From a virus: a DNA stretch of 64,000 nt. The notes under the pieces were generated by a model, which did not search any database, was not told the origin of the DNA, and worked only from the letters and a program-made list of their open reading frames with translations. Location of the stretch: the IMG/VR virus record IMGVR_UViG_3300036770_002122, positions 29,198-93,197 of that record; one strand, written 5' to 3'. The position numbers were made by a program, and so were the translations under genes. Position 1 is the first letter of the stretch. Every line of letters begins with the position of its first letter. Of the stretch, positions 7,929 through 34,133 are shown in pieces.

Positions 7929-8021
7929 ATAAATATAACATATTCATAACGTTGTTGTTATGAGTTTATGCGGTTCCCGCCGCGTACCGGCTAGAACCCG
8001 GCATTATAGGAGAAACAAACA
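7929..8021 (+). promoter_or_regulatory. Late promoter plus structured three-hairpin 5' leader
   Basis: ATAAATA 7929-7935; stems 7943-7964, 7967-7986, 7987-8001; AGGAG RBS. Confidence 0.55.
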
Positions 8022-9146
8022 ATGGGTCGTCCACTTAAAATCGCAAAAGCCCAAGCAGTCGTAACTATCACAGATACAACTACAGGCACAAATCTAGTAA
8101 CTACAAATGCTAACTTTACTAACTTAGGTATCATTGCAGGTATGCCATTCATCCCAGCAAGTAATATCGGTAATTTAGTTGCAGGTACTACATACTGGAT
8201 TCTATCAGTTGTGAATGCAGGCAACAATAGCACATTTACTGTTTCAGCAACACAACTTTCAGCCAATCCAACATATACTGAATTTGCACTTGCAACTGCA
8301 TCTGGTACTGTTTCAGCATCAGTTGGTGTTGTTGACGCATATTTTAACAATCCAATTGGCGGCGCAGGTTATCCAGCAACTAACGCAAATACATATGGCG
8401 TAGTTGGTGGTAACACAGCAATCTATGGTAGTCAAGTATTAGTTGGTGTATGCATGGGTATATCAGGTACTGGTACAATCACAGTAGCAGACGACAGTCC
8501 AAACATCGACGGTGTTGGCACAGACTTTGCAAACACATTCGTTGACGGTACAATCGTATATGACGTTGATGGTAACATTCTTGGTACTATCGATGACATC
8601 GCAAACGCAAACGCAGTATTCGCTACATTCGCAGCAAATGCTAGTGCAAACGTATCAGGCGGTGCATATACTTATGGTACACCAGAAGCAGGCTTTATCG
8701 TTCGTCAGAAAGGTAAAACAAAGTATCTAGTAACAGGCACAACATCAGGTCTAACTCAGGCTTGCTATACAGCAAATGTTGCTAACACAGCATTAGGTCC
8801 TAATACATTTAATATCACTGCAACTTATGCCGACACTTCAACAGCATATGTTCAATCATTAAGTGATTACAATAGTGAAGTATTCCCAGCAACTGTGGCT
8901 GCTTCAGCATTGGTAGCAGGTACTGTTTACACTATTGAGTTTGCAGGTGACACGGATTGGACAGCAGTTGGCGCATTTGCTAACATGACTGGTATCACAT
9001 TCGTTGCCACTGGTGCTGGCACAGGTACAGGTACAGCAGTATTGTCAAATGTTGATCCTGATGTAATTGCATCATTCAACAGCGCAGTTGCAGCAAACAC
9101 TGCAAATGGATTGTTGAACCCTGTTGTAACTATTACTAACGCTTAA
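8022..9146 (+). CDS. Virion structural protein
   Basis: Ala/Gly/Thr-rich, MGRPLK start, FIVRQKGKTKYLV motif, strong RBS. Confidence 0.7.
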   Translation: MGRPLKIAKAQAVVTITDTTTGTNLVTTNANFTNLGIIAGMPFIPASNIGNLVAGTTYWILSVVNAGNNSTFTVSATQLSANPTYTEFALATASGTVSASVGVVDAYFNNPIGGAGYPATNANTYGVVGGNTAIYGSQVLVGVCMGISGTGTITVADDSPNIDGVGTDFANTFVDGTIVYDVDGNILGTIDDIANANAVFATFAANASANVSGGAYTYGTPEAGFIVRQKGKTKYLVTGTTSGLTQACYTANVANTALGPNTFNITATYADTSTAYVQSLSDYNSEVFPATVAASALVAGTVYTIEFAGDTDWTAVGAFANMTGITFVATGAGTGTGTAVLSNVDPDVIASFNSAVAANTANGLLNPVVTITNA

Positions 9147-9157
9147 TAGGTGTAATA

Positions 9158-9475
9158 ATGGCTGCTACTGCAAAAAGAATTAAATTTGAACAAACCATTA
9201 CTGATGTGGCAATTCTTCAAACTGAAGTAGAAAACCTACATGAAAAAGTTGATGAATTAAAACTAGATGTAAAAGACCTTCATGAATGTTTAGATAGAAA
9301 TATGGCTGAAACTAAATCACTCCTTAAAGAGTATAGCGATATGTCAACTGAACAACATAAGGAACTTTCAGATAAAGTATCCAGTTTTGAAAAAATTAAA
9401 TGGATGCTAATGGGAGCGGCAGCACTATTGGGTGCTACCGGAATCGAGGCAATTCAAATGTTCTTGTCGCAGTAA
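9158..9475 (+). CDS. Coiled-coil protein with C-terminal transmembrane helix (XhlA/holin-like)
   Basis: Heptad repeats then KWMLMGAAALLGATG. Confidence 0.5.
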   Translation: MAATAKRIKFEQTITDVAILQTEVENLHEKVDELKLDVKDLHECLDRNMAETKSLLKEYSDMSTEQHKELSDKVSSFEKIKWMLMGAAALLGATGIEAIQMFLSQ

Positions 9476-9494
9476 AAATAGTCACATGACTAGT

Positions 9495-9520
9495 AAAAAC
9501 GGGGCTTAGGCCCCGTTTTT
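9495..9520. terminator. Bidirectional terminator between convergent genes
   Basis: aaaaacggggc-ttag-gccccgttttt. Confidence 0.9.
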
Positions 9521-9920
9521 ATTTTGTAAGTATTTCTAATTTTTCCTTAACTATATCTATGTTAACAGTACTGAACAAGCCTGGGTGCATTGGTTTAGGG
9601 TGTTGGCTGTCTCCAATCCATGCATACCCTACATGCTCGTAATTCAATTTTGGCACAAATTCTTCATTAACCGCGCAGAAAAAGGTGTGGTATGTAAAAG
9701 TATTATTAACAAATTTTTGAATTGGAACTAATTTTGCGTTCTCAGGAAAATAGCCAATTTCTTCTAAACACTCTCTTTCTAAGCCCTCTAACAGAGTTTC
9801 ATCATTTTCTATTTTACCGCCCGGCACACCCCACGCATAATTGGCATCGCTACGTAACAGATATAAAAATCTTTTGGTAACGGTACTATAAAAAAATATT
9901 CCTGCCGAGGTATTTTTCAT
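9519..9920 (-). CDS. Nudix hydrolase
   Basis: Nudix box PGGKIENDETLLEGLERECLEEIG. Confidence 0.9.
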   Translation of the reverse strand: MKNTSAGIFFYSTVTKRFLYLLRSDANYAWGVPGGKIENDETLLEGLERECLEEIGYFPENAKLVPIQKFVNNTFTYHTFFCAVNEEFVPKLNYEHVGYAWIGDSQHPKPMHPGLFSTVNIDIVKEKLEILTK

Positions 9921-9929
9921 GATAATGTC

Positions 9930-9958
9930 AGTATAGCAAATACAGCATCAAATTACAA
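9930..9958 (-). promoter_or_regulatory. sigma70-type promoter for the Nudix gene
   Basis: TTGTAA-N17-TATACT with extended -10 TG, 9 nt before ATG. Confidence 0.55.
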
Positions 9959-11324
9959 TACTATAATCACCCTGATCGTACCAACCTTCATATGACTTCA
10001 TCCATTGACCTTCTTGATCAACATAACGATATTGGATATTAGTAGTTAGATTGGTTACATATTCTACATTAGTGCTTTCGCTAGCATCAAAACTTACAAC
10101 CCATTCTCCTGCGCTAGCATCATATTGTATAATATCATTTGCTTCAGCAACTAAATTACCCCAGGCTAATGTGGTATTACCTTCAGTTCCTATATTTTCG
10201 ACAATTAAATATCTACGACCATTAACTGGGCCCGGTAAACCTGCATTAGGACCACTTAGTTGTGGGTTGATAACACTATCTACTGGTTGAAGTGTATTTT
10301 GTGGTAATGTGTCTGGATCAATATTATAAATTAAAAGTCTATCGTCTACCGGATCAGGTACTATTGTACCAACTATGTCAGTTTCCATATATGGATTTTG
10401 TAACCATATTTGACTGATGCCGGGTTTCCACGCGCCGTATGCGTTTAATAAACTACTCCAATACAAATCAGTATTAGGAGGAGACGGATCATTAAGATCA
10501 GTATTGGGTGGGTAAAATGCTTCATTAGCAGGTAGTAACTGTAATTTATTACCTATCAATAATAACTTGTAACCAAAAGGACTAATTTTCTGTCTAGTAC
10601 CTAACAATAAATCTTCATCTTGTATATCTTGTAGTGCTGTGCCCTTATAAATGCTAGCAATAACTTTGTGAATAACACCCATCTTTTTAAGTTTAGCACT
10701 TGTACTAATCCATATAGGCATATAGAATTTCCAACTCAACACATCAATAGGATTACCTGTTCCAATTGGAATAGTTCTTGAACTAAATGTTAACCCATCT
10801 TGATATACAACTGTTAATGATGTCCAGTCAACAAAATTATCAGTACTTTGAATTTCTAAACTAGGGTTAAACAATGTACCCAATTGTTCAATTAATTCTA
10901 ATTTTTGATTATAATTTGTAGTCCAAAAATCTACTTGAAGTCTTAGTGTATAGGGTACCGGCATTAAACGTTCAATAGTAAATGCTTGCCCTTGTGTATT
11001 TTCATATGCTTCTGTTTCGTTATTATAAGAACGCTGTCTTACTTGTAACTTCTCAACGAAAAAAGGTTCCTGTGTTCGTTTTTGATCATACTCTAAACCT
11101 GTAATAAAGTACGTAATCATAGGCGCGCTGGGCAATGAACTTGGACTATTATTTTGAATAATAGTTTGTACTTGACGACTTTGATCACCGTACATGACAG
11201 GTACACGCACTAATATATCATTACCATTAGGATCCTTGCCTTTGGTTACATACCAATTACTAAAAATTTTCGCAAACTGCAATAAGAATCTGCGTATCTG
11301 GTTGTCATAAAAAAATTGTGCCAT
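9948..11324 (-). CDS. gp15: Tail sheath stabilizer/terminator (T4 gp15-like) with C-terminal extension
   Basis: FFYDNQIRR..QF, VRVPVMYGD, PVPY.L, LELIEQ...FNP. Confidence 0.8.
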   Translation of the reverse strand: MAQFFYDNQIRRFLLQFAKIFSNWYVTKGKDPNGNDILVRVPVMYGDQSRQVQTIIQNNSPSSLPSAPMITYFITGLEYDQKRTQEPFFVEKLQVRQRSYNNETEAYENTQGQAFTIERLMPVPYTLRLQVDFWTTNYNQKLELIEQLGTLFNPSLEIQSTDNFVDWTSLTVVYQDGLTFSSRTIPIGTGNPIDVLSWKFYMPIWISTSAKLKKMGVIHKVIASIYKGTALQDIQDEDLLLGTRQKISPFGYKLLLIGNKLQLLPANEAFYPPNTDLNDPSPPNTDLYWSSLLNAYGAWKPGISQIWLQNPYMETDIVGTIVPDPVDDRLLIYNIDPDTLPQNTLQPVDSVINPQLSGPNAGLPGPVNGRRYLIVENIGTEGNTTLAWGNLVAEANDIIQYDASAGEWVVSFDASESTNVEYVTNLTTNIQYRYVDQEGQWMKSYEGWYDQGDYSIVI

Positions 11325-17476: not shown

Positions 17477-20400
17477 ATGGCATTAACATCACCTGGCGTA
17501 GAAGTTACAATCATTGACCAAAGTCAATATCTTCCAGCCCAAATCGGATCAGTTCCGCTAGTTGTATTCGCAACTGCGGCAAATAAAGCAAACGCTACTG
17601 AATCAGGGGTAGCAGTAGGTACAACCGCAGCAAATGCTGGTAAGTTATATCTAGTTACAAGTCAGCGCGACTTGGTATCATTATATGGTAAACCATTCTT
17701 TTATGAATCAACAAATGGTACACCAATTCAAGGCTATGAATTAAACGAATACGGTTTATTAGCAGCATATTCTGCACTAGGTGTAACAAATCGTGTTTAT
17801 TGCTTACGTGCTGATATTGATTTATCAAGCCTCGTAGGACAAGCAGGACGCCCAGTAGGTGAGCCAGAAGATGGCGCGTATTGGTTAGATACTACATTAA
17901 CTAACTGGGGCCTATATGAATTTAATGCAACAACAGGTCAATTTACTTTACAACAACCTTTAGTAATTACTGATCCTGAAAACGTAGTTGCAGGTTATCC
18001 AGCAGGATATCTAGGTGCAGTAGGAACTTATGCAGTAATCGCACTACAAACTACTGAAGTACCAACTGCAACAACAGCACAGCAATTCTTCTATAAGAAT
18101 AGTTATAACACATGGGTAGTAGTAGGTTCATGCGAATGGCATGAAAGCGTTGCTACTATAGTAGGTTCAAATTCTAATCCTACATTAACAGCAGGTCAAA
18201 CATTTACATTAACTATAGCAGATCAATTTACAAATCCTCAAACAGCAACAATTACTGTTCCTGGATTTGGTTCAAATACTGCTACTGGCGTAGCAAATGC
18301 TATCAATGCTTTAGGTTGGCAGAATTTAACTGCTGATGTAAATTCAGCAGGTCGCTTGCAGATTTTCACTCATGCATCTGTTGTAGTAGGTGCAGGAACA
18401 GGAACAGTACTATCTGATCTAGGTATCAGTGCAGGTACATATTATTCTCCAGCATTCTATTATGGAACATCTGCACAACAACCACTATGGCAAACAGGAC
18501 AGACTACTCCAAGACCAAGTGGTTCTGTATGGTTAAAGGTAGGCGCAGCAGGTAACGGCTTTAGCCCTATCATTTCAGAGTATGATGCAAGTGTTAATGC
18601 TTGGATCGCTAAAACTGTTTCATTAGCAACAGGTGATGCTGCAGCCATTGATGCACTAGACGCAACTGGTGGACAGGCTATACCAGCAGGCACAATATAT
18701 GGACAATATTCTTATAATAATGCATTTTCTCCAGATCATCCTGGTCCAATTTATTATTGGAAGCGTCTTGCTACAGGTCCTACAGTAGTTACTGGTACTA
18801 ATACAAGTCCAAACTTTAATGCAGGTCCATATGAAGCAACAGTATATGTAACTATTCCTAATAGCAGTTCATGGCAGGGTCCATACACTGTTTCATTAGC
18901 AGATAATACATTTGCTGAAGAGTTTGTAGAAGCATGGCAGTTAGCAAGTATTCCTTACACAACAGCCGAAGTAACTACAGAAGGTTCAATTCAAATTACA
19001 CATACATTAGGTGGTTCAATTAGTGTCAGTGACATTAATCTTGTAACTGGTTTATCTAATGGTTTACTAGAAGAAGCAGGATTTGTTGCAAATGTAACAG
19101 CAGGTTGCAAGCCAGGACTTCTTCAAGGCGATTTATTTGACGTTGCTCAAAGCAGCACAACTTCAATTGCCGGCGCCGGACTACAAATTCAAGTTTTAGT
19201 ATCACAACTTGATCAATATAGACTTGGACCAATTCTTTCAGGCGGTACAAACTATGTTGTAGGTGACATCGTTACTTTTGCTGGTACTGACATGGGTGGT
19301 ACAACTGATAATAACTTAGAAGTTGTAGTAACTAGTGTAGGTGCTGGCGGTGAAGTACTAGGTATAGTATTAGCAACAAATGGTGGTAATCAACCAGCAT
19401 ACAAATATTCAGTTATGTTAAGTAACTGGGTAGAATTTGATTATACTGCTAACGAAGGTGCACCAACAGAAACACCAGCAAATAATACTAACTGGTACTA
19501 TAGTGTAACAAATGAAGTTGACATTATGGTCAACACACAATCAGGTTGGAAGGGTTATCGCAACGTAAACTTTGATAATAATGCTTTCCCACTACCAAGC
19601 GGTACAAATACAACTGATCCAAACGGTCCAATCGTAAGCGCAAGCATGCCAGAAACACAGAGTGATGGCACAGCACTTGCTTATGGTGATTTATGGGTTG
19701 ATACTAGTGCAGAGGCATTAGAAAACTATCCAGTAATCAGCCGTTGGCAAGAAGTTGATGGTGAAGATCAATGGGTATTAATTGATAATTCAGATCAAAC
19801 TAGTTCATCAGGCATCGTATTTGCCGATGCACGTTGGTCAAGTAATCAAAATACAATTAACCCAGCAAACGATCCTATCCCAACAATCAAGTCATTGTTA
19901 ACAAGCAATAATCTTGACATAGATGCACCAGCATCTAACTTGTATCCAATTGGATGCTTATTGTTTAATACTCGTCGTAGTGGAAATAACGTAAAACAAT
20001 ACAGAACTAATTATTTTAATACTGTATCTTTCCCAGACGAAACAATACCAACAATTCGTAGCACATGGGTAACAGTAAGTGGATTGCAAACAAATGGTGC
20101 TCCTTATATGGGTCGTAAGGCTCAAAGAGCAATGGTTGTTGAAGCACTACGTAGTGTATTAGCAACTAATACAGCAATTCGTGACGAAGATAACTTCTTC
20201 AATTTAATGGCTACACCAAATTATCCTGAGTGTCAGCCTAACATGATTGAAGTTAACGGTGCTCGCGGCGAAACTTGCTACATTCTAGGTGACACTCCAA
20301 TGCGTCTACCAGAAAGTGCAACTGCAATTCAAGCATGGGCAACTAATGCAGCAGGTGCAGCAAGCACAGGTGAAGATGGATTAGTAACTCGTAATACTTA

Positions 20401-21055
20401 TATGGGCTTGTTCTACCCAAGTGGTTTAGCAACAGACCTAGATGGTAACGAAGTTGCTGTTCCAGCAAGTCATATGATGTTACGTACTTTCTTACGTAAT
20501 GACACTATTGCTTATCCTTGGTTCGCAGCAGCAGGTGTTCGTCGTGGTATCATCGACAATGCATTGAGCATTGGATATCTTGACGGCACAACTGGTGAGT
20601 TCATTTCAACTAAGACAAGACTTGGCATACGTGATACATTGTACGAAAACTTCATCAACCCACTAGTATTCTTTACTGGTAACGGTTTGTTGAACTATGG
20701 TAACAAGACATCATTCAATAGTCAAAGCGCATTGGATCGTACAAACGTAGCAAGACTAGTTGCGTACATCCGTCGTCAATTGACACTAGCAGCAAGACCA
20801 TTCGTATTCGAACCAAACGATACTACAACTCGTCAAGAAATTTCAGGTGTTGTAGAAACATTGATGCTTGATTTAATTGCTAAGAGAGGTATCTATGATT
20901 ACTTGGTTGTTTGCGATGAGTCAAATAACACACCAGCAAGAATAGATCGTAATGAGTTGTGGATCGACGTAGCAATTGAGCCTGTCAAGGCTGCTGAGTT
21001 CATCTACATCCCAGTACGTATATTGAACACTGGTGAATTAGGAAATCAGGGATAA
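17477..21055 (+). CDS. gp18: Tail sheath protein (enlarged, 1192 aa)
   Basis: MALTSPGVEVTIID; PWFAAAG..RG; ALDRTNVARL; FEPND..TR; VVCDESNNT; IEPVKAAEFIYIP. Confidence 0.95.
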   Translation: MALTSPGVEVTIIDQSQYLPAQIGSVPLVVFATAANKANATESGVAVGTTAANAGKLYLVTSQRDLVSLYGKPFFYESTNGTPIQGYELNEYGLLAAYSALGVTNRVYCLRADIDLSSLVGQAGRPVGEPEDGAYWLDTTLTNWGLYEFNATTGQFTLQQPLVITDPENVVAGYPAGYLGAVGTYAVIALQTTEVPTATTAQQFFYKNSYNTWVVVGSCEWHESVATIVGSNSNPTLTAGQTFTLTIADQFTNPQTATITVPGFGSNTATGVANAINALGWQNLTADVNSAGRLQIFTHASVVVGAGTGTVLSDLGISAGTYYSPAFYYGTSAQQPLWQTGQTTPRPSGSVWLKVGAAGNGFSPIISEYDASVNAWIAKTVSLATGDAAAIDALDATGGQAIPAGTIYGQYSYNNAFSPDHPGPIYYWKRLATGPTVVTGTNTSPNFNAGPYEATVYVTIPNSSSWQGPYTVSLADNTFAEEFVEAWQLASIPYTTAEVTTEGSIQITHTLGGSISVSDINLVTGLSNGLLEEAGFVANVTAGCKPGLLQGDLFDVAQSSTTSIAGAGLQIQVLVSQLDQYRLGPILSGGTNYVVGDIVTFAGTDMGGTTDNNLEVVVTSVGAGGEVLGIVLATNGGNQPAYKYSVMLSNWVEFDYTANEGAPTETPANNTNWYYSVTNEVDIMVNTQSGWKGYRNVNFDNNAFPLPSGTNTTDPNGPIVSASMPETQSDGTALAYGDLWVDTSAEALENYPVISRWQEVDGEDQWVLIDNSDQTSSSGIVFADARWSSNQNTINPANDPIPTIKSLLTSNNLDIDAPASNLYPIGCLLFNTRRSGNNVKQYRTNYFNTVSFPDETIPTIRSTWVTVSGLQTNGAPYMGRKAQRAMVVEALRSVLATNTAIRDEDNFFNLMATPNYPECQPNMIEVNGARGETCYILGDTPMRLPESATAIQAWATNAAGAASTGEDGLVTRNTYMGLFYPSGLATDLDGNEVAVPASHMMLRTFLRNDTIAYPWFAAAGVRRGIIDNALSIGYLDGTTGEFISTKTRLGIRDTLYENFINPLVFFTGNGLLNYGNKTSFNSQSALDRTNVARLVAYIRRQLTLAARPFVFEPNDTTTRQEISGVVETLMLDLIAKRGIYDYLVVCDESNNTPARIDRNELWIDVAIEPVKAAEFIYIPVRILNTGELGNQG

Positions 21056-21090
21056 TTAATTAATAAATAAGATTATGGAGAAATACTAAA

Positions 21091-21732
21091 ATGGCTGCAA
21101 TATCATTAAACAGAATGTCAGTTGCTGGTAGTGACGGAGGTTCTGGTAACCAAGGCTTGTTAATGCCAAAACTACAATATCGCTTTAGAGTTAAATTTCT
21201 AAACTTTGGAGTAGACACACTAGCAGGTTTGGCTCTTACTAGACAAATCGTTGACATAGCAAGACCAACTGTACAGTTTGATCAGGTAACACTACCTGTT
21301 TATAACAGCACAGTTAAATTAGCAGGCAAGCATCAGTGGACAGATATCACTTGCACAATTCGTGATGAGGCTACTGGTGAAGTTGCTAAGGCTGTAGGTC
21401 AACAGTTACAGAAGCAATTAGACTTCATGGAACAGGCTTCAGCAGCAGCAGGTCAAGATTATAAGTTCCAAACTAACATCGAAATATTAGATGGTGGTAA
21501 CGGAACTTCAGCACCAGTAGTACTTGAAACATGGGAACTATATGGTTGCTGGTTGCGCGGTGCAAATTATCAAACACTAAATTACGGTCAAAGTGATGCT
21601 GTTACTATTCAGTTAACTATTTGTTACGATAACGCATTGCAAACACCACTAGGTAGTGGAGTTGGTACTGCTGTAGGCAGAACACTTGGCACAAGCGCAA
21701 TTGGTATAGGTAATAACAATAACAACCTTTAA
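21091..21732 (+). CDS. gp19: Tail tube protein
   Basis: Follows sheath; PKLQYRFRV, AGKHQW, LETWELYGCW, L.Y..S..VTI.LT..YD. Confidence 0.88.
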   Translation: MAAISLNRMSVAGSDGGSGNQGLLMPKLQYRFRVKFLNFGVDTLAGLALTRQIVDIARPTVQFDQVTLPVYNSTVKLAGKHQWTDITCTIRDEATGEVAKAVGQQLQKQLDFMEQASAAAGQDYKFQTNIEILDGGNGTSAPVVLETWELYGCWLRGANYQTLNYGQSDAVTIQLTICYDNALQTPLGSGVGTAVGRTLGTSAIGIGNNNNNL

Positions 21733-21741
21733 TAAGGTGAA

Positions 21742-22977
21742 TTGATGTCTGGAATTTACCAGAATTTGCAGAATGCCCTCGGTGCTTTTTTAGGAACACC
21801 GGGGGCTCCTAGTGGGGCCTACTTAAGAGATTTTCGTCACGCAAGTAAGACTTTTGTAAGTGATAGTTACGCTCTTGCCCCTAAATTTAAATTTCTTTTT
21901 CATACATATTTTAATATTAATCCTGCAGCATTAGATTCAACAATGACTGCAAATTTTAACAATTACGGTTTATTGGTAAAAGATATTAGATTGCCTAGTT
22001 ATCGTTTTGCTACTCACACATTAAATCAATATAATCGTAAAAGAATTGTACAAACAAAGATTAATTATGATCCAGTAGAAATTACTTTTCATGATGATAA
22101 CAGCAATGTCATTAATAAATTATGGTATGCATACTATACATATTACTACAAAGACGCAAGTAAATTAACTAAAAATCCAACTAGTAATACAACACAAAGT
22201 ACTCAGGCTGATTTTAATGTAAGAAATACATACACCGATGATGCTCAAGGAAGTTTTGATTGGGGATACATTGGTGAAATTAGTACAAATGCATCAGGTG
22301 ATAATACTAAAAAACCTTTCTTTAATAGCGTGACAGTATATGGATTTAATCAACATCAATATATTGCTTATCAATTAATTAATCCTATTATTGCAAACTT
22401 TCAACATGATTCATATGATTATGATCAAGGCAACGGTGTCATGCAAAATCGTATGACTTTAGAATACGAAACTGTGCAATATTATGAAGGTGCATTTAAT
22501 GGTGAAACATTACCTGATATTGAAACTGGCAACTTTGCTGATGCAGCCAATTATGACAGAGAATTAAGTCCAATTACCATACCCGGTGCTAACGGTAAAA
22601 TTTTAGGGCCGAGTGGATTTCTTGATGGTGTAGGCGGATTTGTAAAGGCACTAGGTGAAGGAAATATTTTAGGTGCTATAAAAGTAGCAGGTGCTACTTA
22701 CAATAATTATAAATCGTATAATGCTAAAACAGCATTAAAACAAGAAGCAGAAAATTTATTATTAGGCGCACTGGGACAATTAAAAGTTGGACCAACAATT
22801 AGAAATCAACAAACTCAAACTCCGATAAAACAAGAAACACCCACAAATAATGGAGCAGGTTCACCGACAATAGCAAACGGTTCACAACCCGGTGTTGTTG
22901 GTGGAGATCCAACTGCAGGATCTCAAGTACCATCAACAACTTCTCCGCCTCAACCTAGAGTAAGAGGACCAATTTAA
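21742..22977 (+). CDS. Tail-tube-like baseplate/tube initiator protein
   Basis: VKDIRLPSY, YDPVEITFHDD, LINPII..F.HD..DY, MTLEYE (gp19/gp54-like fold). Confidence 0.6.
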   Translation: MMSGIYQNLQNALGAFLGTPGAPSGAYLRDFRHASKTFVSDSYALAPKFKFLFHTYFNINPAALDSTMTANFNNYGLLVKDIRLPSYRFATHTLNQYNRKRIVQTKINYDPVEITFHDDNSNVINKLWYAYYTYYYKDASKLTKNPTSNTTQSTQADFNVRNTYTDDAQGSFDWGYIGEISTNASGDNTKKPFFNSVTVYGFNQHQYIAYQLINPIIANFQHDSYDYDQGNGVMQNRMTLEYETVQYYEGAFNGETLPDIETGNFADAANYDRELSPITIPGANGKILGPSGFLDGVGGFVKALGEGNILGAIKVAGATYNNYKSYNAKTALKQEAENLLLGALGQLKVGPTIRNQQTQTPIKQETPTNNGAGSPTIANGSQPGVVGGDPTAGSQVPSTTSPPQPRVRGPI

Positions 22978-23339
22978 TGTTATATGATATTCAAAGACAA
23001 TCACAAGAAAATACAGTAAAAATTTTCGATGCTTTTTATAAAACTAATTCCGTAATTCCTACCAACCAGTGGGATTTAGTTAAAAGTTATTTTGATAGTG
23101 TATGCGACACCAAACAAATTGCAGCAAATTTTACTGCTGTATTTTTTAGAATGGCGCAAGAAAATGGTATAGATGCTATGGTATTGCTTGAAGAACTGCA
23201 AGGCAGAGCAAGAACTAAAGTTGATCTAAGTCAAGTGATGGCATATTATTTCAATAGTTTTAAGTCCAAAACAAGTTTATATGGATTAGCAGTTATACCG
23301 GTACCTAATCAGGCAGTTGCTAGAAACGTTGTAATTTAA
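22977..23339 (+). CDS. Hypothetical virion-associated protein
   Basis: 120 aa, coupled within the tail operon. Confidence 0.65.
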   Translation: MLYDIQRQSQENTVKIFDAFYKTNSVIPTNQWDLVKSYFDSVCDTKQIAANFTAVFFRMAQENGIDAMVLLEELQGRARTKVDLSQVMAYYFNSFKSKTSLYGLAVIPVPNQAVARNVVI

Positions 23340-23340
23340 T

Positions 23341-23778
23341 ATGGCAAATTTTGCTCAAGGCAAATATCAATGTAAGAATAAAGGTAAGTATATAGGCACA
23401 CATGTACCTAGATATCGTAGTGGTTGGGAATTAACATTTATGATGTTTTGTGATAACCACGATAGCGTGATATCCTGGGCTAGTGAATCTATACAAATAC
23501 CCTACAGAAATCCACTAACAGGCAAATCAACAATTTATGTACCTGACTTTTTTGTTCAATATCAGGATAAATATGGCAGACAACGTGCAGAACTTGTTGA
23601 AATAAAACCTAAAAAACAAAGTCTAATTGAAAGTAGAACCGCTAGCGCAAGAGACAAGGCTGCAGTGGCAGTCAATCATGCAAAATGGGCAGCAGCAACA
23701 GCATACTGTAAAAAAGCAGGATTAACTTTTAGAGTCATTACAGAGGATGATTTGTTCAGGAACGGAAGGAATAAATAG
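23341..23778 (+). CDS. gp4: Head completion nuclease (T4 gp4-like, TnsA-like)
   Basis: YRSGWE..FM, WASE...IPY, YVPDF, LVEIKP, N.AKW.AA, FRVITE. Confidence 0.9.
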   Translation: MANFAQGKYQCKNKGKYIGTHVPRYRSGWELTFMMFCDNHDSVISWASESIQIPYRNPLTGKSTIYVPDFFVQYQDKYGRQRAELVEIKPKKQSLIESRTASARDKAAVAVNHAKWAAATAYCKKAGLTFRVITEDDLFRNGRNK

Positions 23779-23793
23779 TATATAGGAGATCGT

Positions 23794-24525
23794 ATGCTAT
23801 TTCTTCAAAATAAATACACATCTTGGTACTTTGCTATTATCAACAAAGCAAAAAAAAGAATAACTGAAGGGTATACTGAAAAACACCACATCATTCCGAA
23901 AACACTAGGTGGTAAAAATGATAAATCTAATATTGTAAAATTAACTGCTAGAGAACATTTTATTTGTCATTTACTGTTGACTAAAATGTTAGTTGATGAT
24001 AACAGACATAAGATGATATACGCATTACACATGTTGTCTAATGCATCTAACAAATTACATCAACGTTATGCACCCTCAAGCAAACTATACGAATATGAAA
24101 GAAAAATATTTGCAGAAACTCATTCGTTTAAGATGAAACAAAATCATCCATTAAAAAATCCATTACATAAACAATCGCATCAGTTGGGTATAGATAAAAG
24201 AGGTCCTACTTCTATCAAAGGTATCAAAAGATCAGAGTCGATGAAAGAAAAGATGCGTAACAGAGAATGGACTCAAAAAGCCCTTGATAATCGTCTTGCA
24301 AATTGCCTTAAATCAGCAGAAGCAAGAAAAGGAAGCAAGTGGTCTTCCGACATGCATAAACGTAGATTCCAGCAATACGTCGAAAAGAACAAGCACCTAT
24401 TTTCTCAAGTATTTTCATTAGAAGATCAAGGTTACAGCACCAGGCAAATAGCATTGAAAATGAATATATCCTGGGATAGAATAAATTACATCTTAACAAA
24501 TAAATACCGACTAAATACCCTATGA
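23794..24525 (+). mobile_element. Free-standing HNH homing endonuclease
   Basis: EKHHIIPKTLGGKNDKSNIVKLTAREHFICHLLL; basic NUMOD-like region; C-terminal HTH (GYSTRQIA). Confidence 0.85.
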
Positions 24526-25001
24526 CACGTAAACTTGAAGAACTATTCAATCTCTCGCAAAGCGAAGAGACATCTGAACAACTTGAATTACCTCCCGAAA
24601 CTCAGGAAGTAACTGAAACGGCTCTTGATAACCTTGAAAAGATAGAAAACGCATTACCTCAAGTGCGTGGATTAGAAACTGCGGATCATGAAATGGACGA
24701 TCTAGCGGATTTAGCCAAAAATAGTTATAAAGATTTAATGGATTTGGGTATGCAAGTTGATAGTCGTTATAGCAGCGAAATTTTTAATGTAGCAGGTACT
24801 ATGCTAGGTCATGCTATCACTGCAAAAACAGCAAAAGTGCAAAAAAAGTTAAAGATGATTGAATTGCAACTAAAGAAAGCGGGATTAGATCAGAAATTAG
24901 CAAGTAAAGAAGAAAAGATTGAGGCTACCCCATTAGGTGAGGGTAAAGTACTTGATCGTAATGAACTACTCAAATCCCTGACAACTAAAAACATAAATTA
25001 G
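24522..25001 (+). CDS. Conserved helical late protein (small-terminase-like possible, unverified)
   Basis: 159-aa coiled coil; own late promoter inside the HNH 3' end. Confidence 0.55.
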   Translation: MTRKLEELFNLSQSEETSEQLELPPETQEVTETALDNLEKIENALPQVRGLETADHEMDDLADLAKNSYKDLMDLGMQVDSRYSSEIFNVAGTMLGHAITAKTAKVQKKLKMIELQLKKAGLDQKLASKEEKIEATPLGEGKVLDRNELLKSLTTKNIN

Positions 25002-25029
25002 TGATAAATATTAGATACAGGATATACGT

Positions 25030-25662
25030 ATGAAAAGCCTAAAACAATACATTGCAGAAAGTGTACATTTATATGATGTAACTATTAAAATTGCCGGAGA
25101 AGTTGATAAAAACTTCCTAGATTTGTTCATTCATAATCTTAAGAAGTTTGATCCAGCAACTCCAATCACACCTAAAACACTTCCTATTGCAAAAGATGCA
25201 TATGGTTTTCCGGGTATGAGCAATGAACCAGTAACAGTGTTGCGTTGCAAATTCCGTTATCCTGCTACAGAACCAATGGTACAACAGTTAGCACAATTAT
25301 TAGGCTATAATGTCAATTATGTACGTTTGGTCAATAGCGAATACGATGATAGCATCAACCGTGAAAGCGAAGAATATGCTAATCAAATGGAGCACAGTCC
25401 TGTATTAACTCACACTGAAATGGAAGATGCGGGTGATGCTGCTAAAAAAGCAAGTAAGGATTATGGTAATTCATATTTAGATAGTATCAAAGCACAAAGT
25501 AAAGACGGTTTTCAAGGCAAAGATTTACAGTTTGATGGAAAGAGAACCCCAGACAGTTTTGATCCATTCAAGCCATACTTAGATGACAAATCAAAGGGTA
25601 ATAAGAGTCCAATGACTAATATTACACGTCCTGCCAAGCCTAAAACAGGCGCAATGGCGTAA
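25030..25662 (+). CDS. Candidate internal head protein
   Basis: N-terminus MKSLKQYIAE|S resembles T4 capsid-targeting MKTYQEFIAE; late promoter 25004-25010. Confidence 0.6.
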   Translation: MKSLKQYIAESVHLYDVTIKIAGEVDKNFLDLFIHNLKKFDPATPITPKTLPIAKDAYGFPGMSNEPVTVLRCKFRYPATEPMVQQLAQLLGYNVNYVRLVNSEYDDSINRESEEYANQMEHSPVLTHTEMEDAGDAAKKASKDYGNSYLDSIKAQSKDGFQGKDLQFDGKRTPDSFDPFKPYLDDKSKGNKSPMTNITRPAKPKTGAMA

Positions 25663-25673
25663 GAGGTTTTATC

Positions 25674-28600
25674 ATGGAATTTAAGAAATTTTTAGAATTA
25701 GTAAATGAGGCTGAGTCAACAGCCGAAAAAGATGATAAAGCCAAAAAAGCAGGCGAAGAAGTCACTAAAGATATTGAATATGATGAAGGTCATAAAGGTA
25801 GTGATGACGAACGTGCTGAAAAAGCAGGCAAAAAAGTTGCCGCTGATATCAGATACGATGATAAGAAAGATAAAAAGAAATCATTAAAAGAATATTTTGA
25901 AGAAACTGAACAAGAAATTATTAATGAAGGTCAGTTTCCTATTCCAGTAGTTGGTCCAGACAATAAACCAATTGCTGGCCAATCAGGCTTTTTAAACGTA
26001 AGTGTTCCAGGACAAGCAGGCGTAGCAGTCAATGACATGCTGCGTAGATTAGGTGCAAGAGGTTTAAGTATAATTCTTCCACCAAATAGAATTCAACAGC
26101 AGCAACAGCAACAAGCATTGGCTGCTGCTAAAAGAGCATCTGTACAAACTTCAGGCAAACAAGTTGCTGAAGAAACTGTAGATGAAGGCATTGATGATGT
26201 TGTCAAATTAGGTACAAAGTACGGCGACGATATTGCTAAACAATTTAGTAACTTTGCTAGCGGATTTAAAAATCCACAAGGTGCAATGAATTTACCAAAT
26301 CAATCATTAGCATCAAAAGCAGGTGCAGCAACATCAAGAGGCGGTCCTGCAATAGGGGCAGGCGCCGGTGCAGCAGGCATGGCTGCATTAGGTGGTGACG
26401 ATAAACCTGCAGCAGATAATAAACCGGCAGCCGTCGCAGCAGACAATAAACCAGCAGCAGCGGCACCCGCTGCACCAGAGGCTCCTGCTGCTCCAGCAGA
26501 GCCTGTCGCTCCAGAGGCACCTGCTGTAGATACAGCACCTCCTGCTCCACCATCTGACGAAATTGATAGAATTCAACAATTGGCTGGTATGAGCGATGAA
26601 GAAAAATATGGTAAGGTAGGAGCAGAGATTCGTAAATTAGATCCTGAAGCCTATAAAAATAGACCAAGAGATTATCAAGGTAATATTGATTTATTAAACA
26701 AGTTAAGAGCGCAAAAAGCAGATGACACCACTGCACCACCTGCAGCAGATACTAAAGCAGATGATAAGCCAGCAGACGCAAAGGCTGATGAAAAACCAGC
26801 AGATGCAGCAGACGCAAGTGATGAATTAGAACCTGTAACTGTTACCGGTAAGAGAACACAACCTGCTGATCAAGATAAAGAAGGTGACGCTGAATTAGGT
26901 CGTTTACTAAATTTATCTGGCGCAAATACCTATGATGAATTAGGTAATTGGTTAAAGAATAGAGATAAGCCTGCAGGAAGCACTGAAGAACCAAAAGCAG
27001 CAGAGCCGGCAAAAGAACCAGAATCAAAACCTGAAGAACCAGCCGTTGACGCAGCAGGGGAAGAACCAGCCGTTGACGCCGCCGGCGAAGAACCAGCACC
27101 CGCTGCTGCAATTGAACCTAAAACTTCTTATAGAGTTGTTGATCCGTCGACCGGCAGAGCAAGAAATGTTTCAAAAGAAAAATATGATCAAATGGTTGCA
27201 AGAGGCCAAATTGATAAAGATAAAGGTTTAGACTATCAATTTAAAGTCAGAGACCCAGATGGTTCAATTAGAACAGTAAAACAAGGTGATCCAGATTGGC
27301 AGAAGTATGCTGATCAGGCAGAAAAAACTGTAGCATCAAATTACAATCAATTACAAGGCGAACCAGAAGGCGAAGAAGGCGAAGAAGGCGAAGAGAAATC
27401 AGGTAGACCAAGTTTGTTTAGAAGATTATTCAACATCGGCAAAGACGATGAAGGTTATTATCTAGGTAAAAAGCGCGGTCGTGATAATGCTCCAGATGAT
27501 ACTGAAGAAAAGTCAGAACTATCTGAAGGTAAACTTGCTGAAAAGTGGGAAGGCGATGTTAAAGTTGAACCAACTGGCGAGTATAAAAATAAAACAAAAG
27601 CACAATTACAGGCAATGTTGGCACGACTACATAAAACTGGTCCTCATAAGAAGGGCAGCAAAGAAGCCAAACAGCAAAGTCAAATTAATTTTGCATTACG
27701 TGCCAAAGGTGGTTGGAAGAAAGGTGAAGGCGCAGCAATGAAATCTGTAGAAGAAGATGCTACAGCAGCACAGCCAAGCAAACTACAGCAAAGACATCAA
27801 GATAACTTTGCTGCTAAACAACAAGCAGCACATAGTAAACAAGATAGTCAAGCAAAAGATTATCTAGCATCAAAAGGTGTAAGCGATCAAAATGCAGCAA
27901 AACTAATGGCTAAACCAATGAGAGAAGAAAAAGTCGATGAAAAGTTTGCAAGCCAACAGCAAGCAAAATTAATGTACGCAGCAGCAGGCGATAAAAAAGT
28001 CGCAAAGAAAACTGGCGTAAGTCAAGACGTAGCAAAAGAATTTATTAAAAAGAGTCATGGGCAGAAAGTAAGCAAACTACCCAAGAAAGTAAAAGAAGCA
28101 GAAATTCCAAAGTCAGGCCCAGATTATGGTGCAGGATTAGGCGCTGGTCGCAGCGACAACGTATTGGAGGCAAAGCCGGATTTCATCGATCTTGATAAAG
28201 ACGGTGATAAGAAAGAATCAATGAAGAAGGCAGCAGCCGACAAAAAGAAAAAGAAGGTAAATGAATCTATGAGCAATCTATTAAAAGCAGCATATAGCGA
28301 AGGCTATGTACACGGTCTACGTGAGCAACCATGCCGCGTAAAACACTACCAAGATATGGAAGAAGCAAAGCATTACTTTGAAGGTTACAAATGTGGCCTA
28401 GAAGAATGCTATGGACTCGTTCCAGGTCGCGGCTATGTTGACGAAGAATCATCACAAGATGTTGTAGACAACATGGCAAGTTTCGGTGCAGTAGGTGTTG
28501 AAGAAAATACTAATCAAAACATGGCAGCAGTTCCCGTGCAGAAGGCACAGGCTGGTCAAGTAAACACTTCAGCAACCAATCCTGCTCCGCAACAAAATGT

Positions 28601-30617
28601 ACCAGTAAAGCCAACTCCAACTGCAATGCCACAGCAGCCACAAATTAATGTCGGCGGTGTACCTGCAACTAAACAAGATGGCTCATCAAACATGGGTGCT
28701 GTAATGCAAAGCCGCGCAAACTTAAGCAATATTGGCCAGCAAGCAGCACAACAAATGCAAGAAGATGATTTAGATGAAATGGATAAAGGTGATTGGTTGA
28801 AGCACAAAGCAAAAACTACACCAGGTGACACATTTAAGGCATTTGGTCAAACATTCAAAGATAAAGACGTTTCAGAAACATATGCATTTGAAGATTTAGA
28901 ACAACAATTAAACGCTTTATTAGAAAATAAAGTTGTTAATGAAGGTCTTTCGGTATCGATGTCAACTGGGCAACAAGGTAGCCCAGACAGCGTAAGCGTA
29001 ACTGCTACAGACGGTGATAGTGAAAAACTATTATCATTCATTAAGCAAGTAGGTTTGGGCGGTTTATCAGATGCAGAACCAATTAATACTCCTGCTGAAC
29101 CAGCAGTTGTTGCAACAGTAAGTGATTACGGCGCGCCTAAATTCAGCGGTCATGAAATGCCAAGCATGGATGATTTGCTATCAAAATTAACAGGCATCGA
29201 ATCACATGACGATCATGGTCATGATCATGGGCATGGTGATGAAGAATCAACATGTAACGAATGCGGCATGATGGAAAGTTCATGCGGCTGCGAAAAAAAA
29301 ACTGAAGAAGTTTTAGAAACTACAGTTGAAGCGCAGGTAAAATCAGATCAACTTGACGAAGCAGCACCTGCATTAGCAGCACTAGGTAGATTAGCAGGTC
29401 TTGCAGGACGCGCAGCATTAGCAAATCCTGGTAAGGCTGCTATGCTTGCAAAGCGTGCCGCAAGCGCATTCAAAAAAGATAAAGAAGAAGTAGACGAAAC
29501 CGAAACATTAGATCAACGCGAATTTATGGTCGCTGAAGATGACGGTGAAGGCTATGAACAAAGTCAAGCAGATGCAGGCAAGATTGATAGCGCATTAGCA
29601 TTAAGCGGCGCATCAAAGGGCGGCGCAACTAACGAAGATGCCATGGATCTAGGCTTAGGCGGATCAATGAAAGATATGATGTCAAAATTAGGAGACATTG
29701 AAAATAAATCAATGTCAACTAATACTTCAAATGACACATCATCATATACTGTAGATGGCAAACCAGCAACTAAAGATGAATATGATAATGCTATGAAGAA
29801 TTTCAAGATGCCAACAATGCCAACAATGCCGACTATGCCAAAAATGCCTAACATGCCAGCAGGTATGGAACTTCCTGAATTGCCAGAACTTCCTGATTTA
29901 TCTGATTTAGGCATGGGCGCTGCTGGCGGTGATGACAATGTAAGCATGTCAAGACAAGAATATAATGATCTTATCAATGCAGCATTACCTGGCGTAACTG
30001 TTACAGGCAAAAGAGTAGGTGGCGACGATGAGTTGCAACCAGTAACTATTGCTAGCAAAAAGAGAGAATTGCCTGGAAGTGATGATGAGTTACAACCAGT
30101 AACTATTCAATCAAAGAAGCGTGAAATGCCTGCAGGTGATGACACATTTGTAGCAAAAGCAGATGATGCTGAAATTGCAAATATTAAAAAGTCACTAGAC
30201 GACATGATGAAAGATATCATGCCTAGAATGGCAGGTCGTGACCAAGATTGGTTAGACGCTCAACAAGATCAACAACTAGCAACACAAGGTGCTGCAGGAG
30301 ATTGGTTCAGAAGTGCATTAGGTAGAGGGGCAAATTTAAATGATCCTAATACTAGAGCAAAACTTGATCGTCTTGCTAAGAAAGCACAAACTAATGAGCA
30401 AGAAAAGTTAGATGAATGGGCAAATGATGCAGGTCAAAAAGGCACAGATGCAGCATTCACCCGTGATACAGACTTTATGACTCAAACTATCAGCGGTGGA
30501 TTGAACAAGCCTAAGTCAACAGGTCAAACTACAATCCCTGTTATTGCTGGTCAAGAAGCAAGAGAAGGCGACGAAGATGTGCAAGCCTGGAAGAAATTAG
30601 CAGGTCTAGCGAAGTAA
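25674..30617 (+). CDS. 1647-aa low-complexity modular protein, candidate internal head polyprotein
   Basis: Many (L/I/V/M)-x-E sites separating unrelated segments; DxDxDG motif; short tandem repeats. Confidence 0.6.
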   Translation: MEFKKFLELVNEAESTAEKDDKAKKAGEEVTKDIEYDEGHKGSDDERAEKAGKKVAADIRYDDKKDKKKSLKEYFEETEQEIINEGQFPIPVVGPDNKPIAGQSGFLNVSVPGQAGVAVNDMLRRLGARGLSIILPPNRIQQQQQQQALAAAKRASVQTSGKQVAEETVDEGIDDVVKLGTKYGDDIAKQFSNFASGFKNPQGAMNLPNQSLASKAGAATSRGGPAIGAGAGAAGMAALGGDDKPAADNKPAAVAADNKPAAAAPAAPEAPAAPAEPVAPEAPAVDTAPPAPPSDEIDRIQQLAGMSDEEKYGKVGAEIRKLDPEAYKNRPRDYQGNIDLLNKLRAQKADDTTAPPAADTKADDKPADAKADEKPADAADASDELEPVTVTGKRTQPADQDKEGDAELGRLLNLSGANTYDELGNWLKNRDKPAGSTEEPKAAEPAKEPESKPEEPAVDAAGEEPAVDAAGEEPAPAAAIEPKTSYRVVDPSTGRARNVSKEKYDQMVARGQIDKDKGLDYQFKVRDPDGSIRTVKQGDPDWQKYADQAEKTVASNYNQLQGEPEGEEGEEGEEKSGRPSLFRRLFNIGKDDEGYYLGKKRGRDNAPDDTEEKSELSEGKLAEKWEGDVKVEPTGEYKNKTKAQLQAMLARLHKTGPHKKGSKEAKQQSQINFALRAKGGWKKGEGAAMKSVEEDATAAQPSKLQQRHQDNFAAKQQAAHSKQDSQAKDYLASKGVSDQNAAKLMAKPMREEKVDEKFASQQQAKLMYAAAGDKKVAKKTGVSQDVAKEFIKKSHGQKVSKLPKKVKEAEIPKSGPDYGAGLGAGRSDNVLEAKPDFIDLDKDGDKKESMKKAAADKKKKKVNESMSNLLKAAYSEGYVHGLREQPCRVKHYQDMEEAKHYFEGYKCGLEECYGLVPGRGYVDEESSQDVVDNMASFGAVGVEENTNQNMAAVPVQKAQAGQVNTSATNPAPQQNVPVKPTPTAMPQQPQINVGGVPATKQDGSSNMGAVMQSRANLSNIGQQAAQQMQEDDLDEMDKGDWLKHKAKTTPGDTFKAFGQTFKDKDVSETYAFEDLEQQLNALLENKVVNEGLSVSMSTGQQGSPDSVSVTATDGDSEKLLSFIKQVGLGGLSDAEPINTPAEPAVVATVSDYGAPKFSGHEMPSMDDLLSKLTGIESHDDHGHDHGHGDEESTCNECGMMESSCGCEKKTEEVLETTVEAQVKSDQLDEAAPALAALGRLAGLAGRAALANPGKAAMLAKRAASAFKKDKEEVDETETLDQREFMVAEDDGEGYEQSQADAGKIDSALALSGASKGGATNEDAMDLGLGGSMKDMMSKLGDIENKSMSTNTSNDTSSYTVDGKPATKDEYDNAMKNFKMPTMPTMPTMPKMPNMPAGMELPELPELPDLSDLGMGAAGGDDNVSMSRQEYNDLINAALPGVTVTGKRVGGDDELQPVTIASKKRELPGSDDELQPVTIQSKKREMPAGDDTFVAKADDAEIANIKKSLDDMMKDIMPRMAGRDQDWLDAQQDQQLATQGAAGDWFRSALGRGANLNDPNTRAKLDRLAKKAQTNEQEKLDEWANDAGQKGTDAAFTRDTDFMTQTISGGLNKPKSTGQTTIPVIAGQEAREGDEDVQAWKKLAGLAK
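27033..27098 (+). repeat. 27-nt in-frame tandem repeat (EEPAVDAAG x2.4)
   Basis: gaagaaccagccgttgacgc repeated at 27-nt spacing. Confidence 0.8.

Positions 30618-30722: not shown

Positions 30723-34133
<3,411 letters not shown>

Follow-up and report, generated by a model that had tools for sequence, protein, structure and literature searches.

TonB-dependent outer-membrane receptors (Plug PF07715/TonB_dep_Rec PF00593 proteins) dock onto the TonB energy motor with a TonB box, a ten-residue segment with the consensus L-x-x-V-x-V-T-G/A-x-R that is often preceded by acidic residues and lies in an unstructured segment. TonB-dependent bacteriocins, such as the group B colicins and pyocin S2, are foreign proteins that carry their own TonB box in an intrinsically disordered region and present it to TonB in the periplasm in order to be pulled in; pyocin S2 delivers its box from a disordered N-terminus (PMC10994204). 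Synthetic TonB-box peptides delivered to the periplasm compete with transporters for TonB and repress growth of a siderophore-deficient P. aeruginosa strain (PMC9841981). In phages, the T4 internal proteins and Alt are head proteins that are targeted by a short N-terminal capsid-targeting sequence (CTS), processed by the gp21 protease and ejected. The T4 CTS is 10 residues long and is processed at residues 8 and 10 (PMC9026906). TonB dependence of some phages, such as T1 and phi80, is ascribed to the receptor and not to the phage, and we found no paper describing TonB boxes in phage virion proteins.

We examined a 64,000-nucleotide stretch (the window; positions 29,198 to 93,197 of IMG/VR record IMGVR_UViG_3300036770_002122) from the 93-kb contig of an uncultured freshwater jumbo phage. 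A preliminary description of this DNA had claimed that a candidate ejected protein carries four TonB-box-like motifs in disordered acidic context. This observation is confirmed by our analysis. All four motifs lie in frame in one ORF of 1647 aa (P0002, 25674-30617, + strand). Motif 1, DELEPVTVTGKR, is at 26820-26855 (aa 383-394). Positions 29985-30122 read LPGVTVTGKR-VGGD-DELQPVTIASKKR-ELPGSD-DELQPVTIQSKKR, which places motif 2, LPGVTVTGKR, at 29985-30014 (aa 1438-1447), motif 3, DELQPVTIASKKR, at 30027-30065 (aa 1452-1464), and motif 4, DELQPVTIQSKKR, at 30084-30122 (aa 1471-1483), all on the + strand. The pattern [LIVMF]x[PG][VI]x[VI]xx[KR][KR] occurs four times in the protein, whereas in 20,000 composition-preserving shuffles the mean was 0.004 and P(>=2) was 5e-5. 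Thus, chance was rejected. Stricter forms of the motif occur nowhere else in the six frames of the whole contig, and in about 700 kb of related phage loci they occur only inside orthologues of this gene. The flanks are acidic, with 13 D/E in 51 residues around motif 1 and 15 in 76 around motifs 2-4. AlphaFold2 models the cluster of motifs 2-4 as coil with pLDDT 36-42, leading us to predict that these motifs lie in disordered segments.

P0002 is an acidic, low-complexity, mosaic protein that belongs to a metagenome-only family of jumbo-phage proteins. We found 251 homologues, none with a Pfam name, and P0002 itself had no Pfam hit; its only PHROG hits are to a small DUF3008-like module. Searches of cultured phages by megablast and tblastn with the gene, and by tblastn with the protein of locus L098, found no match, and tblastn with the motif array of locus L054 found one sub-threshold hit (E 0.3), so there is no annotated homologue to lean on. 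A look-up of the conserved core in the ESM Atlas gave only unnamed viral clusters at chance-level scores. AlphaFold2 gave pLDDT 51-56 for two segments of the protein; for the conserved core (aa 1036-1210, 32 sequences) pLDDT was 51, with no fold worth searching. The most conserved module of the whole family (KLDEWAN..GGLNKPKSTGQTTIPV..WKKLAGLAK) is at 30399-30614 (+), is preceded by an L-D-E site and is covered by 96-120 of 120 homologues. A Gly/Ala-rich, weakly hydrophobic segment followed by a Pro/Ala-rich spacer (KPAA, APEAPA) was read directly from the translation at 26286-26573 (+), about 90 residues upstream of motif 1.

The gene lies in the tail-gene block. Upstream of it, at 17477-25662 (+), are a tail sheath, a tail tube, a tube-like protein, a gp4-like head-closure protein, an HNH endonuclease insert, and a 159-aa and a 210-aa protein, as judged by PHROG hits and by synteny with phage PA5oct and all IMG/VR relatives. 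The slot between the 210-aa gene and the collagen-like fibre gene is conserved in all eight related loci compared, although P0002 evolves faster than its neighbours (61-65% identity against 84-98%). This position would fit a tape measure protein, and the shorter relatives are 900-1000 aa long. However, P0002 has no tape-measure PHROG or Pfam hit, is Pro-rich and acidic, and is modelled with low confidence. A separate 1215-aa protein at 53628-57275 (+) resembles a tape measure protein with a lytic transglycosylase region (phrog_2276 tape measure, E 2.5e-19, plus transglycosylase and endolysin PHROGs) and is a better tape-measure candidate, leaving this reading of P0002 only a minor possibility.

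The motif, L-x-P-V-x-V/I-T-G/S-K-R, is kept in 2-4 copies in every long homologue of 1300-1690 aa (P0002-P0008 and the proteins of related loci L004, L005 and L008) and is absent from 114 shorter family members. Thus, it is not needed for the core role of the family. Motif 1 is identical or near-identical in P0003-P0005 and L004-L006. It is followed at 26856-26978 (+) by a linker plus helix (..GDAELGRLLNLSGANTYDELGNWLKNR), and the same box-plus-helix module follows the first C-terminal box in relatives; we counted seven copies of the module in the window, L004, L005, L006 and L008. In an alignment with 7 homologues, L1438, P1439, V1441, V1443 and T1444 of motif 2, L1454, P1456 and V1457 of motif 3, and L1473, Q1474, P1475, V1476 and K1481 of motif 4 are invariant. 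The L, P and V positions are kept across homologues of 48-83% identity while the linkers vary in length and sequence.

To compare the motifs with genuine TonB boxes, we built a matrix from 21 boxes; the receptors were located with the Plug HMM and each box was then picked upstream of the Plug match with a loose pattern. The matrix ranked motifs 2 and 1 first and second of 32,646 windows in the contig (18.1 and 17.8 bits; next best 11.2), and true boxes scored 8.7-27.8 bits by leave-one-out. Thus, these two motifs are indistinguishable in sequence from genuine TonB boxes. By contrast, motifs 3 and 4 (PVTIASKK and PVTIQSKK) are degenerate and scored 0.6 bits, although relatives carry LQPVKVTGRR or LEPVQVTGKR at the position of motif 3 (13-14.5 bits) and LQPVKVTGKR at that of motif 4 (13.6-14 bits). 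The matrix is not very specific, since 20 non-family windows out of 262,537 reached 12 bits or more, mostly in beta-rich fibre-like proteins, and the loose pattern used to locate the boxes builds in part of the consensus. Near-identical strings occur in real receptors: a Caballeronia receptor reads LPPVKVTGKRES, against LQPVKVTGKR in relatives of P0002, and an Aquabacterium receptor reads DTELAPVVVTGKS. Of 120 sampled bacterial matches to the DNA pattern for L-x-P-V-x-V-T-G-K-R, five lie 10-25 residues before a Plug domain. Among 43 long in-frame ORFs, Plug is the top Pfam family with 5 members and the next has 2. In bacterial genomes the commonest real protein context of the pattern is therefore the TonB box of TonB-dependent receptors.

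The preliminary description had proposed enrichment of the motif in other phage proteins as a check, and this came out positive. The motif, often in arrays of up to 11 copies, recurs in at least three other protein groups, and with the motif masked the four carrier groups share no similarity. The second group is a family from contigs of about 35 kb ending in WNEESLRLKDALG, in which 100 of 120 members carry 1-11 copies; its variants (LGDVVVTGQRE, LKEVTVTGKRE, LPTVTVTG) match the receptor variants seen in the sampled Bacteroidota and Betaproteobacteria. The third is the group of loci L069 and L088, whose homologue in MW202545 sits after a gene annotated "phage stabilization protein" and before an SLT-domain protein, which we read as the slot that ejection-protein genes occupy in P22-like phages. 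The fourth has a LysM-containing member. At least two of these three additional groups are phage proteins in virion structural-gene regions. A search with a two-copy DNA pattern of 18-residue period mostly caught collagen-like G-P-V-G-V-T-G repeats, which were discarded as unrelated.

Several features suggest that P0002 is virion-associated and probably ejected. Its N-terminus, MEFKKFLELVNE|A (25674-25709, +), resembles the T4 CTS in ending in hydrophobic-x-Glu, and 96 of 121 family members have [LIV]xE ending at residue 8-20. [LIV]xE sites number 27 against 18.3 +/- 3.9 expected. A gp21-type protease (PF03420) is encoded by a complete relative, G002 (E 5.6e-28), but was not found in the 93-kb contig, which is 27% complete. 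In PA5oct the same slot, directly after the homologue of the 210-aa protein, holds EST35_0203 (QCG76084.1), which is annotated as a structural protein detected in virions by ESI-MS/MS. This protein is similarly acidic and disordered and has R/K-L-A-G-[VIL] motifs, but it is 498 aa long, has no significant sequence similarity to P0002, and showed no TonB-box-like motif on reading. Like T4 internal proteins, P0002 is variable and apparently accessory. Those proteins, however, are small (8-20 kDa) and basic with no homology to P0002, and the position of the gene among tail genes leaves the "head peptide" of the preliminary description as inference.

P0002 differs from the receptors in having no signal peptide, Plug or barrel, in that the motif is not at the N-terminus of a barrel protein, and in carrying multiple copies of the motif inside a phage protein. 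It differs from the bacteriocins in that no receptor-binding or cytotoxic domain was detected by Pfam search, in having several boxes rather than one, and in lacking sequence homology; delivery would be through a phage tail rather than a receptor lumen. The inhibitory peptides are man-made conjugates, whereas here the peptides would be natural and tethered in a large protein, and any inhibition of TonB is an analogy.

The preliminary description had proposed that phage head peptides mimic the TonB box, either to harness the motor during ejection or to jam TonB and block superinfection; our results support this only in part. Our preferred but tentative explanation is that the four motifs are copies of one short linear motif, an amphipathic beta-strand P-V-T-V-T-G capped by Leu-x-Pro and Lys-Arg, displayed in disordered acidic segments of a giant virion-associated protein of a T4-like jumbo phage. 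In this view, the protein is probably packaged in the particle, has many hydrophobic-x-Glu sites of the type cut by a gp21-type prohead protease, and would be expelled through the tail into the host periplasm at infection. There the motifs would act as TonB-box mimics, pairing by beta-augmentation with the C-terminal domain of host TonB as the boxes of receptors and of pyocin and colicin translocation domains do; solved TonB-receptor complexes (BtuB, FhuA) show strand pairing with the TonB beta3 edge. TonB, driven by the proton-motive force, could then pull the ejected polypeptide, or the motifs could compete with the host's transporters for TonB; the present evidence does not separate the two. 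Our analysis establishes that the motif is real, conserved, in disordered context (as modelled), equivalent in sequence to genuine TonB boxes in two of its four copies, and convergently recurrent in unrelated proteins of phage structural-gene regions, whereas packaging, ejection into the periplasm of a cell that has TonB, and TonB binding itself are inferred. Evidence bearing on the host is thin. Relatives encode bS21, like freshwater huge phages predicted to infect Bacteroidetes, but the sampled Bacteroidota boxes read L-x-E-V-V-V-T-G, without the Pro, and the best bS21 matches, 47 bits in 151 Bacteroidota genomes against 40 bits in 151 Pseudomonadota genomes, were too close to separate the phyla.

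The alternative that survives best, although we consider it doubtful, is that the motif is a beta-augmentation docking peptide for a partner other than TonB. This could be another periplasmic host protein with a TonB-C/TolA-III-like fold or a phage protein such as the capsid interior, portal, tube lumen or a chaperone, in which case the likeness to TonB boxes would reflect the general requirements of an exposed edge strand. The conservation and disorder of the motif speak for this. Motifs 3 and 4 keep L-x-P-V but lose the T-G that scores in TonB boxes, suggesting that the constrained core is L-x-P-V-x-[VI]. Motif 1 is always coupled to a conserved helix, which TonB boxes are not, and beta-rich fibre proteins also score on the matrix. 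However, recurrence in four otherwise unrelated carrier groups is more easily explained by a common host target than by lineage-specific phage partners, the commonest bacterial context of the pattern is the TonB box itself, and no TonB_C-like domain was found in the contig, which covers only 27% of the genome. TolA-box sequences also appear less similar.

It is less likely that the motifs are structural or spacer repeats with no specific ligand, that is, short strands that self-associate or stiffen an otherwise disordered polypeptide and are conserved for that role or only by recent duplication. In favour of this reading, copy number varies freely (0-11 in the second family and 0-4 in this one), arrays with regular 13- or 18-residue periods exist and in the other families could be structural, 114 family members do without the motif, and the protein as a whole is mosaic and fast-evolving. 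By contrast, the copies in P0002 are few and irregularly spaced, with one more than 1,000 residues from the others, the L, P and V positions are invariant while the flanks diverge, and convergence on the same ten residues, including the flanking acidic and Lys-Arg caps, in unrelated families is hard to explain by structure alone. Least likely is that the motifs mark processing sites, cut at the dibasic K-R/K-K-R by a host envelope protease or nearby by the prohead protease to release peptides from a polyprotein, because, although P0002 looks like a polyprotein with many hydrophobic-x-Glu sites and a CTS-like start and every motif ends in a dibasic pair, the motif does not fit (L/I/V)-x-E (in D-E-L-E-P the P3 residue is Glu, and the D-E-L-Q-P copies have no Glu at P1), for which reason the prohead-protease reading was rejected, the position after Gly in the second family is often Q, T or A rather than basic so that the dibasic pair is not the conserved core, and nothing ties the strand part to a protease.

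A broader reading, which we regard as unlikely on present evidence but not excluded, is that tailed phages of several unrelated lineages equip proteins that they inject into the periplasm with one to a dozen TonB boxes. The host's own TonB-ExbBD motor would then reel the ejected polypeptide, and perhaps the channel it builds for DNA, into or across the periplasm, engaging one box after another, while TonB is withdrawn from the host's transporters. This would be a previously undescribed energy source for phage entry and a natural counterpart of bacteriocin import.

How ejected phage proteins and DNA cross the periplasm, and what powers that step, is poorly understood. If phage virion proteins carry working TonB boxes, phages would join colicins and pyocins as parasites of the TonB motor, and arrays of boxes would offer a natural system for studying repeated TonB pulling. 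It would also predict phage-induced shutdown of TonB-dependent uptake and exclusion of TonB-dependent competitors, and the disordered, "junk-like" giant proteins of jumbo phages would gain a concrete function.

The region examined is part of a 93-kb IMG/VR contig, estimated to be 27% complete, from an uncultured T4-like jumbo myophage. The tail sheath (17477-21055) is about 45% identical to those of PA5oct, Atu_ph07, and Phosso. The preliminary description reported four TonB-box-like peptides and these read exactly as described there. All four are encoded by one ORF on the plus strand (25674-30617) that is predicted to encode a protein 1647 aa long that we call P0002, where they occupy residues 383-394, 1438-1447, 1452-1464, and 1471-1483. 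Shuffling the protein gave 0.004 expected matches to the pattern [LIVMF]x[PG][VI]x[VI]xx[KR][KR] compared to the four that were observed. Stricter forms of the motif were found nowhere else in six frames of the contig, and in about 700 kb of related loci they occurred only in orthologues of this gene. Thus, the motifs are more than chance occurrences.

P0002 is acidic (286 D/E against 216 K/R) and of low complexity. It has no Pfam hit and its only PHROG hits are to a small DUF3008-like module. We found 251 metagenomic homologues, but no match among 50,697 cultured-phage records. The family is mosaic, with only three blocks (aa 850-925, 1050-1200, and 1576-1647) shared by all members. AlphaFold2 modeled the 1036-1210 block and the C-terminal 293 residues with a mean pLDDT of only 51-56. 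Cassettes are shuffled within the family. For instance, the charged repeat AEKAGKKVTKDIEYDE-GHKGKDD is at the N-terminus of P0002 (within 25674-25950), whereas in many relatives it is located just before the C-terminal module.

The gene order was the same in all eight related loci that we compared and consists of sheath, tube, tube-like protein, 120-aa protein, gp4-like head closure, 159-aa protein, 210-aa protein, this gene, and a collagen-like fibre. The neighboring proteins are 84-98% identical to those of the closest related loci (L004, L005), whereas P0002 is only 61-65% identical, showing that it evolves fast. An HNH homing-endonuclease gene (23794-24525; phrog_655, E 7.5e-42) is located between the gp4-like gene and the 159-aa gene. 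The eight related loci (L004, L005, L008, L039, and four others) gave no match to it, so it looks like a recent mobile insertion. Downstream, only the first ~210 residues of the collagen-repeat, tail-fibre-like protein (30723-34133) match L004 and L005 (71% identity) and the rest found no match there, which is typical of swapping of the host-range module.

We next considered whether P0002 is a virion protein that leaves the particle. Three indirect lines of evidence suggest that it probably is. First, 96 of 121 family members start with a tag of 10-20 residues ending in hydrophobic-x-Glu (MEFKKFLELVNE|A in P0002). This resembles the capsid-targeting sequence of T4 internal proteins, which is processed at residues 8 and 10 (PMC9026906). 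Such sites are modestly enriched along the protein, with 27 observed against 18.3 +/- 3.9 expected. Second, a complete 364-kb relative (G002) encodes a gp21-type prohead protease (PF03420, E 5.6e-28). Third, the gene in the same slot in PA5oct (EST35_0203; 24644-26140 of the PA5oct locus) encodes an acidic, disordered protein annotated as a structural protein detected by ESI-MS/MS. This protein has no significant similarity to P0002, but the two share a recurring R/K-L-A-G-[VIL] motif. In P0002 a motif of the form [RK]-x-x-L-A-G-[LIVM] recurs along the protein (RIQQLAGMS, GRLLNLSGA, LGRLAGLAG), and the sampled family members that we read, as well as all seven long homologues, end in W-x-x-L-A-G-[IL]-x-K or close variants. 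The PA5oct protein has RLAGV, KLAGI, and KNAGL, and this motif may be a packaging or anchoring signal. From this evidence packaging can only be inferred. Whether P0002 is in the head or the tail lumen, we infer that it would be expelled through the tail at infection.

A tape-measure role for P0002 is less likely because it has no tape-measure hit and is Pro-rich, and because a separate 1215-aa protein with tape-measure and lytic-transglycosylase PHROG hits is encoded at 53628-57275. The latter is the likely tape measure or cell-wall-piercing protein of this phage.

The motif is under constraint. All long relatives (1300-1690 aa; homologues P0003-P0008 and those in the related loci L004, L005, and L008) keep 2-4 copies with the consensus [DE]-L-[QEP]-P-V-x-[VI]-[T/x]-[GS]-[KR]-[KR]. 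In an alignment of seven sequences, the L, P, and V positions of the three C-terminal copies are invariant, while the linkers differ in length and sequence. By contrast, the 114 shorter members (900-1200 aa) lack the motif and it is therefore an accessory module of one subclade. Motif 1, and the first C-terminal box in relatives, are followed after about ten residues by a conserved helix (..LG.LLNLSGANTYDEL..WLK), forming a composite module. AlphaFold2 placed motifs 2-4 in coil with pLDDT 36-42, between helices.

To determine whether the motifs resemble genuine TonB boxes, we located receptors in five bacterial genomes with the Plug HMM and picked the box upstream of each Plug match with a loose pattern. 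The sampled Bacteroidota boxes read L-x-E-V-V-V-T-G/A and the sampled Betaproteobacteria boxes read L-P-x-V-T-V-T-G or L-E-P-L-V-V-T-A. A matrix made from 21 such boxes ranked motif 2 (18.1 bits) and motif 1 (17.8 bits) first and second among 32,646 windows of the contig, with the next best scoring 11.2. True boxes scored 8.7-27.8 by leave-one-out. Motifs 3 and 4 scored only 0.6 bits and are degenerate, although relatives carry LQPVKVTGKR-type boxes of 13-14.5 bits at the same positions. The matrix has false positives since 20 of 262,537 background windows reached 12 bits or more, mostly in fibre-like proteins. Other proteins of related jumbo phages also hold single high-scoring TonB-box-like windows, with DDLQEVTVTSTR at 20.9 bits in a 402-aa ORF of L008 and NDLTGVTVTGTR at 13.8 bits in a 431-aa ORF of the loci L027/L029.

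We also did the reverse search, scanning bacterial genomes for the DNA pattern encoding L-x-P-V-x-V-T-G-K-R. There were at least 120 matches, and of the 120 sampled most were out-of-frame noise, but five (in the bacterial loci L144, L202, L161, L173, and L137) are 10-25 residues upstream of a Plug domain and just after a signal peptide. Among 43 long in-frame ORFs, Plug is the commonest Pfam family with 5 members and the next has 2.

The same DNA pattern searched in IMG/VR, two-copy patterns, and an exhaustive phmmer search recovered further carriers that fall into three groups. Group B is a large unannotated phage protein family from IMG/VR contigs of about 35 kb (L054:2419-4308:-, L087:7269-8702:+, L098:9251-11713:+, L226:6826-8949:+). 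These proteins have an N-terminal Gly/Ala-rich hydrophobic region and a conserved C-terminal end, ..WNEE[ST]LRLKDALG[VIL]. They carry 0-11 motifs, with 100 of 120 members carrying 1-11 copies. The variant forms are TELAPVTVTGKRD, QQLGDVVVTGQRE, PSLKEVTVTGKRE, and TVLPTVTVTGTQT, and these parallel the receptor TonB-box forms seen in the different bacterial phyla sampled. Group C (L088:2090-4987:+ and L069:134-3445:-) has up to ten PELPPVTVTGKK repeats in the form PELPPVTVTGKK-x-DCCC, with Cys triplets between the boxes, as well as C-terminal DDIPAML-DG-[ED]-YV repeats shared with a Caulobacter phage protein annotated as tape measure. The homologue of group C in MW202545 is located after a gene annotated 'phage stabilization protein' and before a transglycosylase (SLT-domain) protein, which we read as the slot that ejection-protein genes occupy in P22-like phages. 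That homologue itself lacks the array and keeps one motif-like element. Group D consists of the metagenomic proteins P0248, P0253, and P0256, which may be of phage or cellular origin, and has ELFPVSVTAQRR arrays. P0256 is 238 aa long and has an N-terminal LysM peptidoglycan-binding domain followed by five QELFPVSVTAQRR repeats, whereas P0248 and P0253 have 6-8 copies. With the motif masked, the P0002 family and groups B-D share no similarity. Convergent acquisition of one peptide by unrelated proteins argues for a common host target. These proteins are, or look, destined for the periplasm, and the only host proteins in which we found the peptide use it to bind TonB.

The evidence on the likely host is mixed. 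The closest relative (G001; the bS21 locus is at 7610-10765 of its contig C1) and the complete relative G002 encode ribosomal protein bS21, which in G001 is next to a ClpX-like ATPase gene. This links the group to the bS21-encoding freshwater huge phages predicted to infect Bacteroidetes (PMC9723584). However, the P-containing form of the motif fits the sampled Betaproteobacteria better, and a comparison of bS21 did not discriminate between possible hosts.

Based on these results, the occurrence of the four TonB-box-like peptides is confirmed. The proposal in the preliminary description, that phage head peptides mimic the TonB box to either harness the motor during ejection or jam TonB, is supported only in part. 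Sequence mimicry is solid for two of the four copies and for the family consensus, whereas packaging, ejection, and engagement of TonB are inferred, with TonB engagement being plausible from sequence alone. Full-text literature searches found no report of TonB boxes in phage virion proteins. In the mechanism that we propose, the disordered segments would expose the strand motifs in the periplasm after ejection and the C-terminal domain of TonB would capture them by strand addition. One possible outcome is that the TonB-ExbBD motor pulls on the polypeptide, as it does on the TonB box of pyocin S2 (PMC10994204). Another is that TonB is titrated away from host transporters, as occurs with synthetic TonB-box peptides in the periplasm of a siderophore-deficient Pseudomonas strain (PMC9841981). 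The Gly/Ala-rich segment and Pro-rich spacer upstream of motif 1 echo the layout of group B, where a hydrophobic region is followed by a linker and an array, hinting at a possible membrane-anchored tether. TonB-box parasitism is already known from bacteriocins and what would be new here is its occurrence in phage virion proteins.
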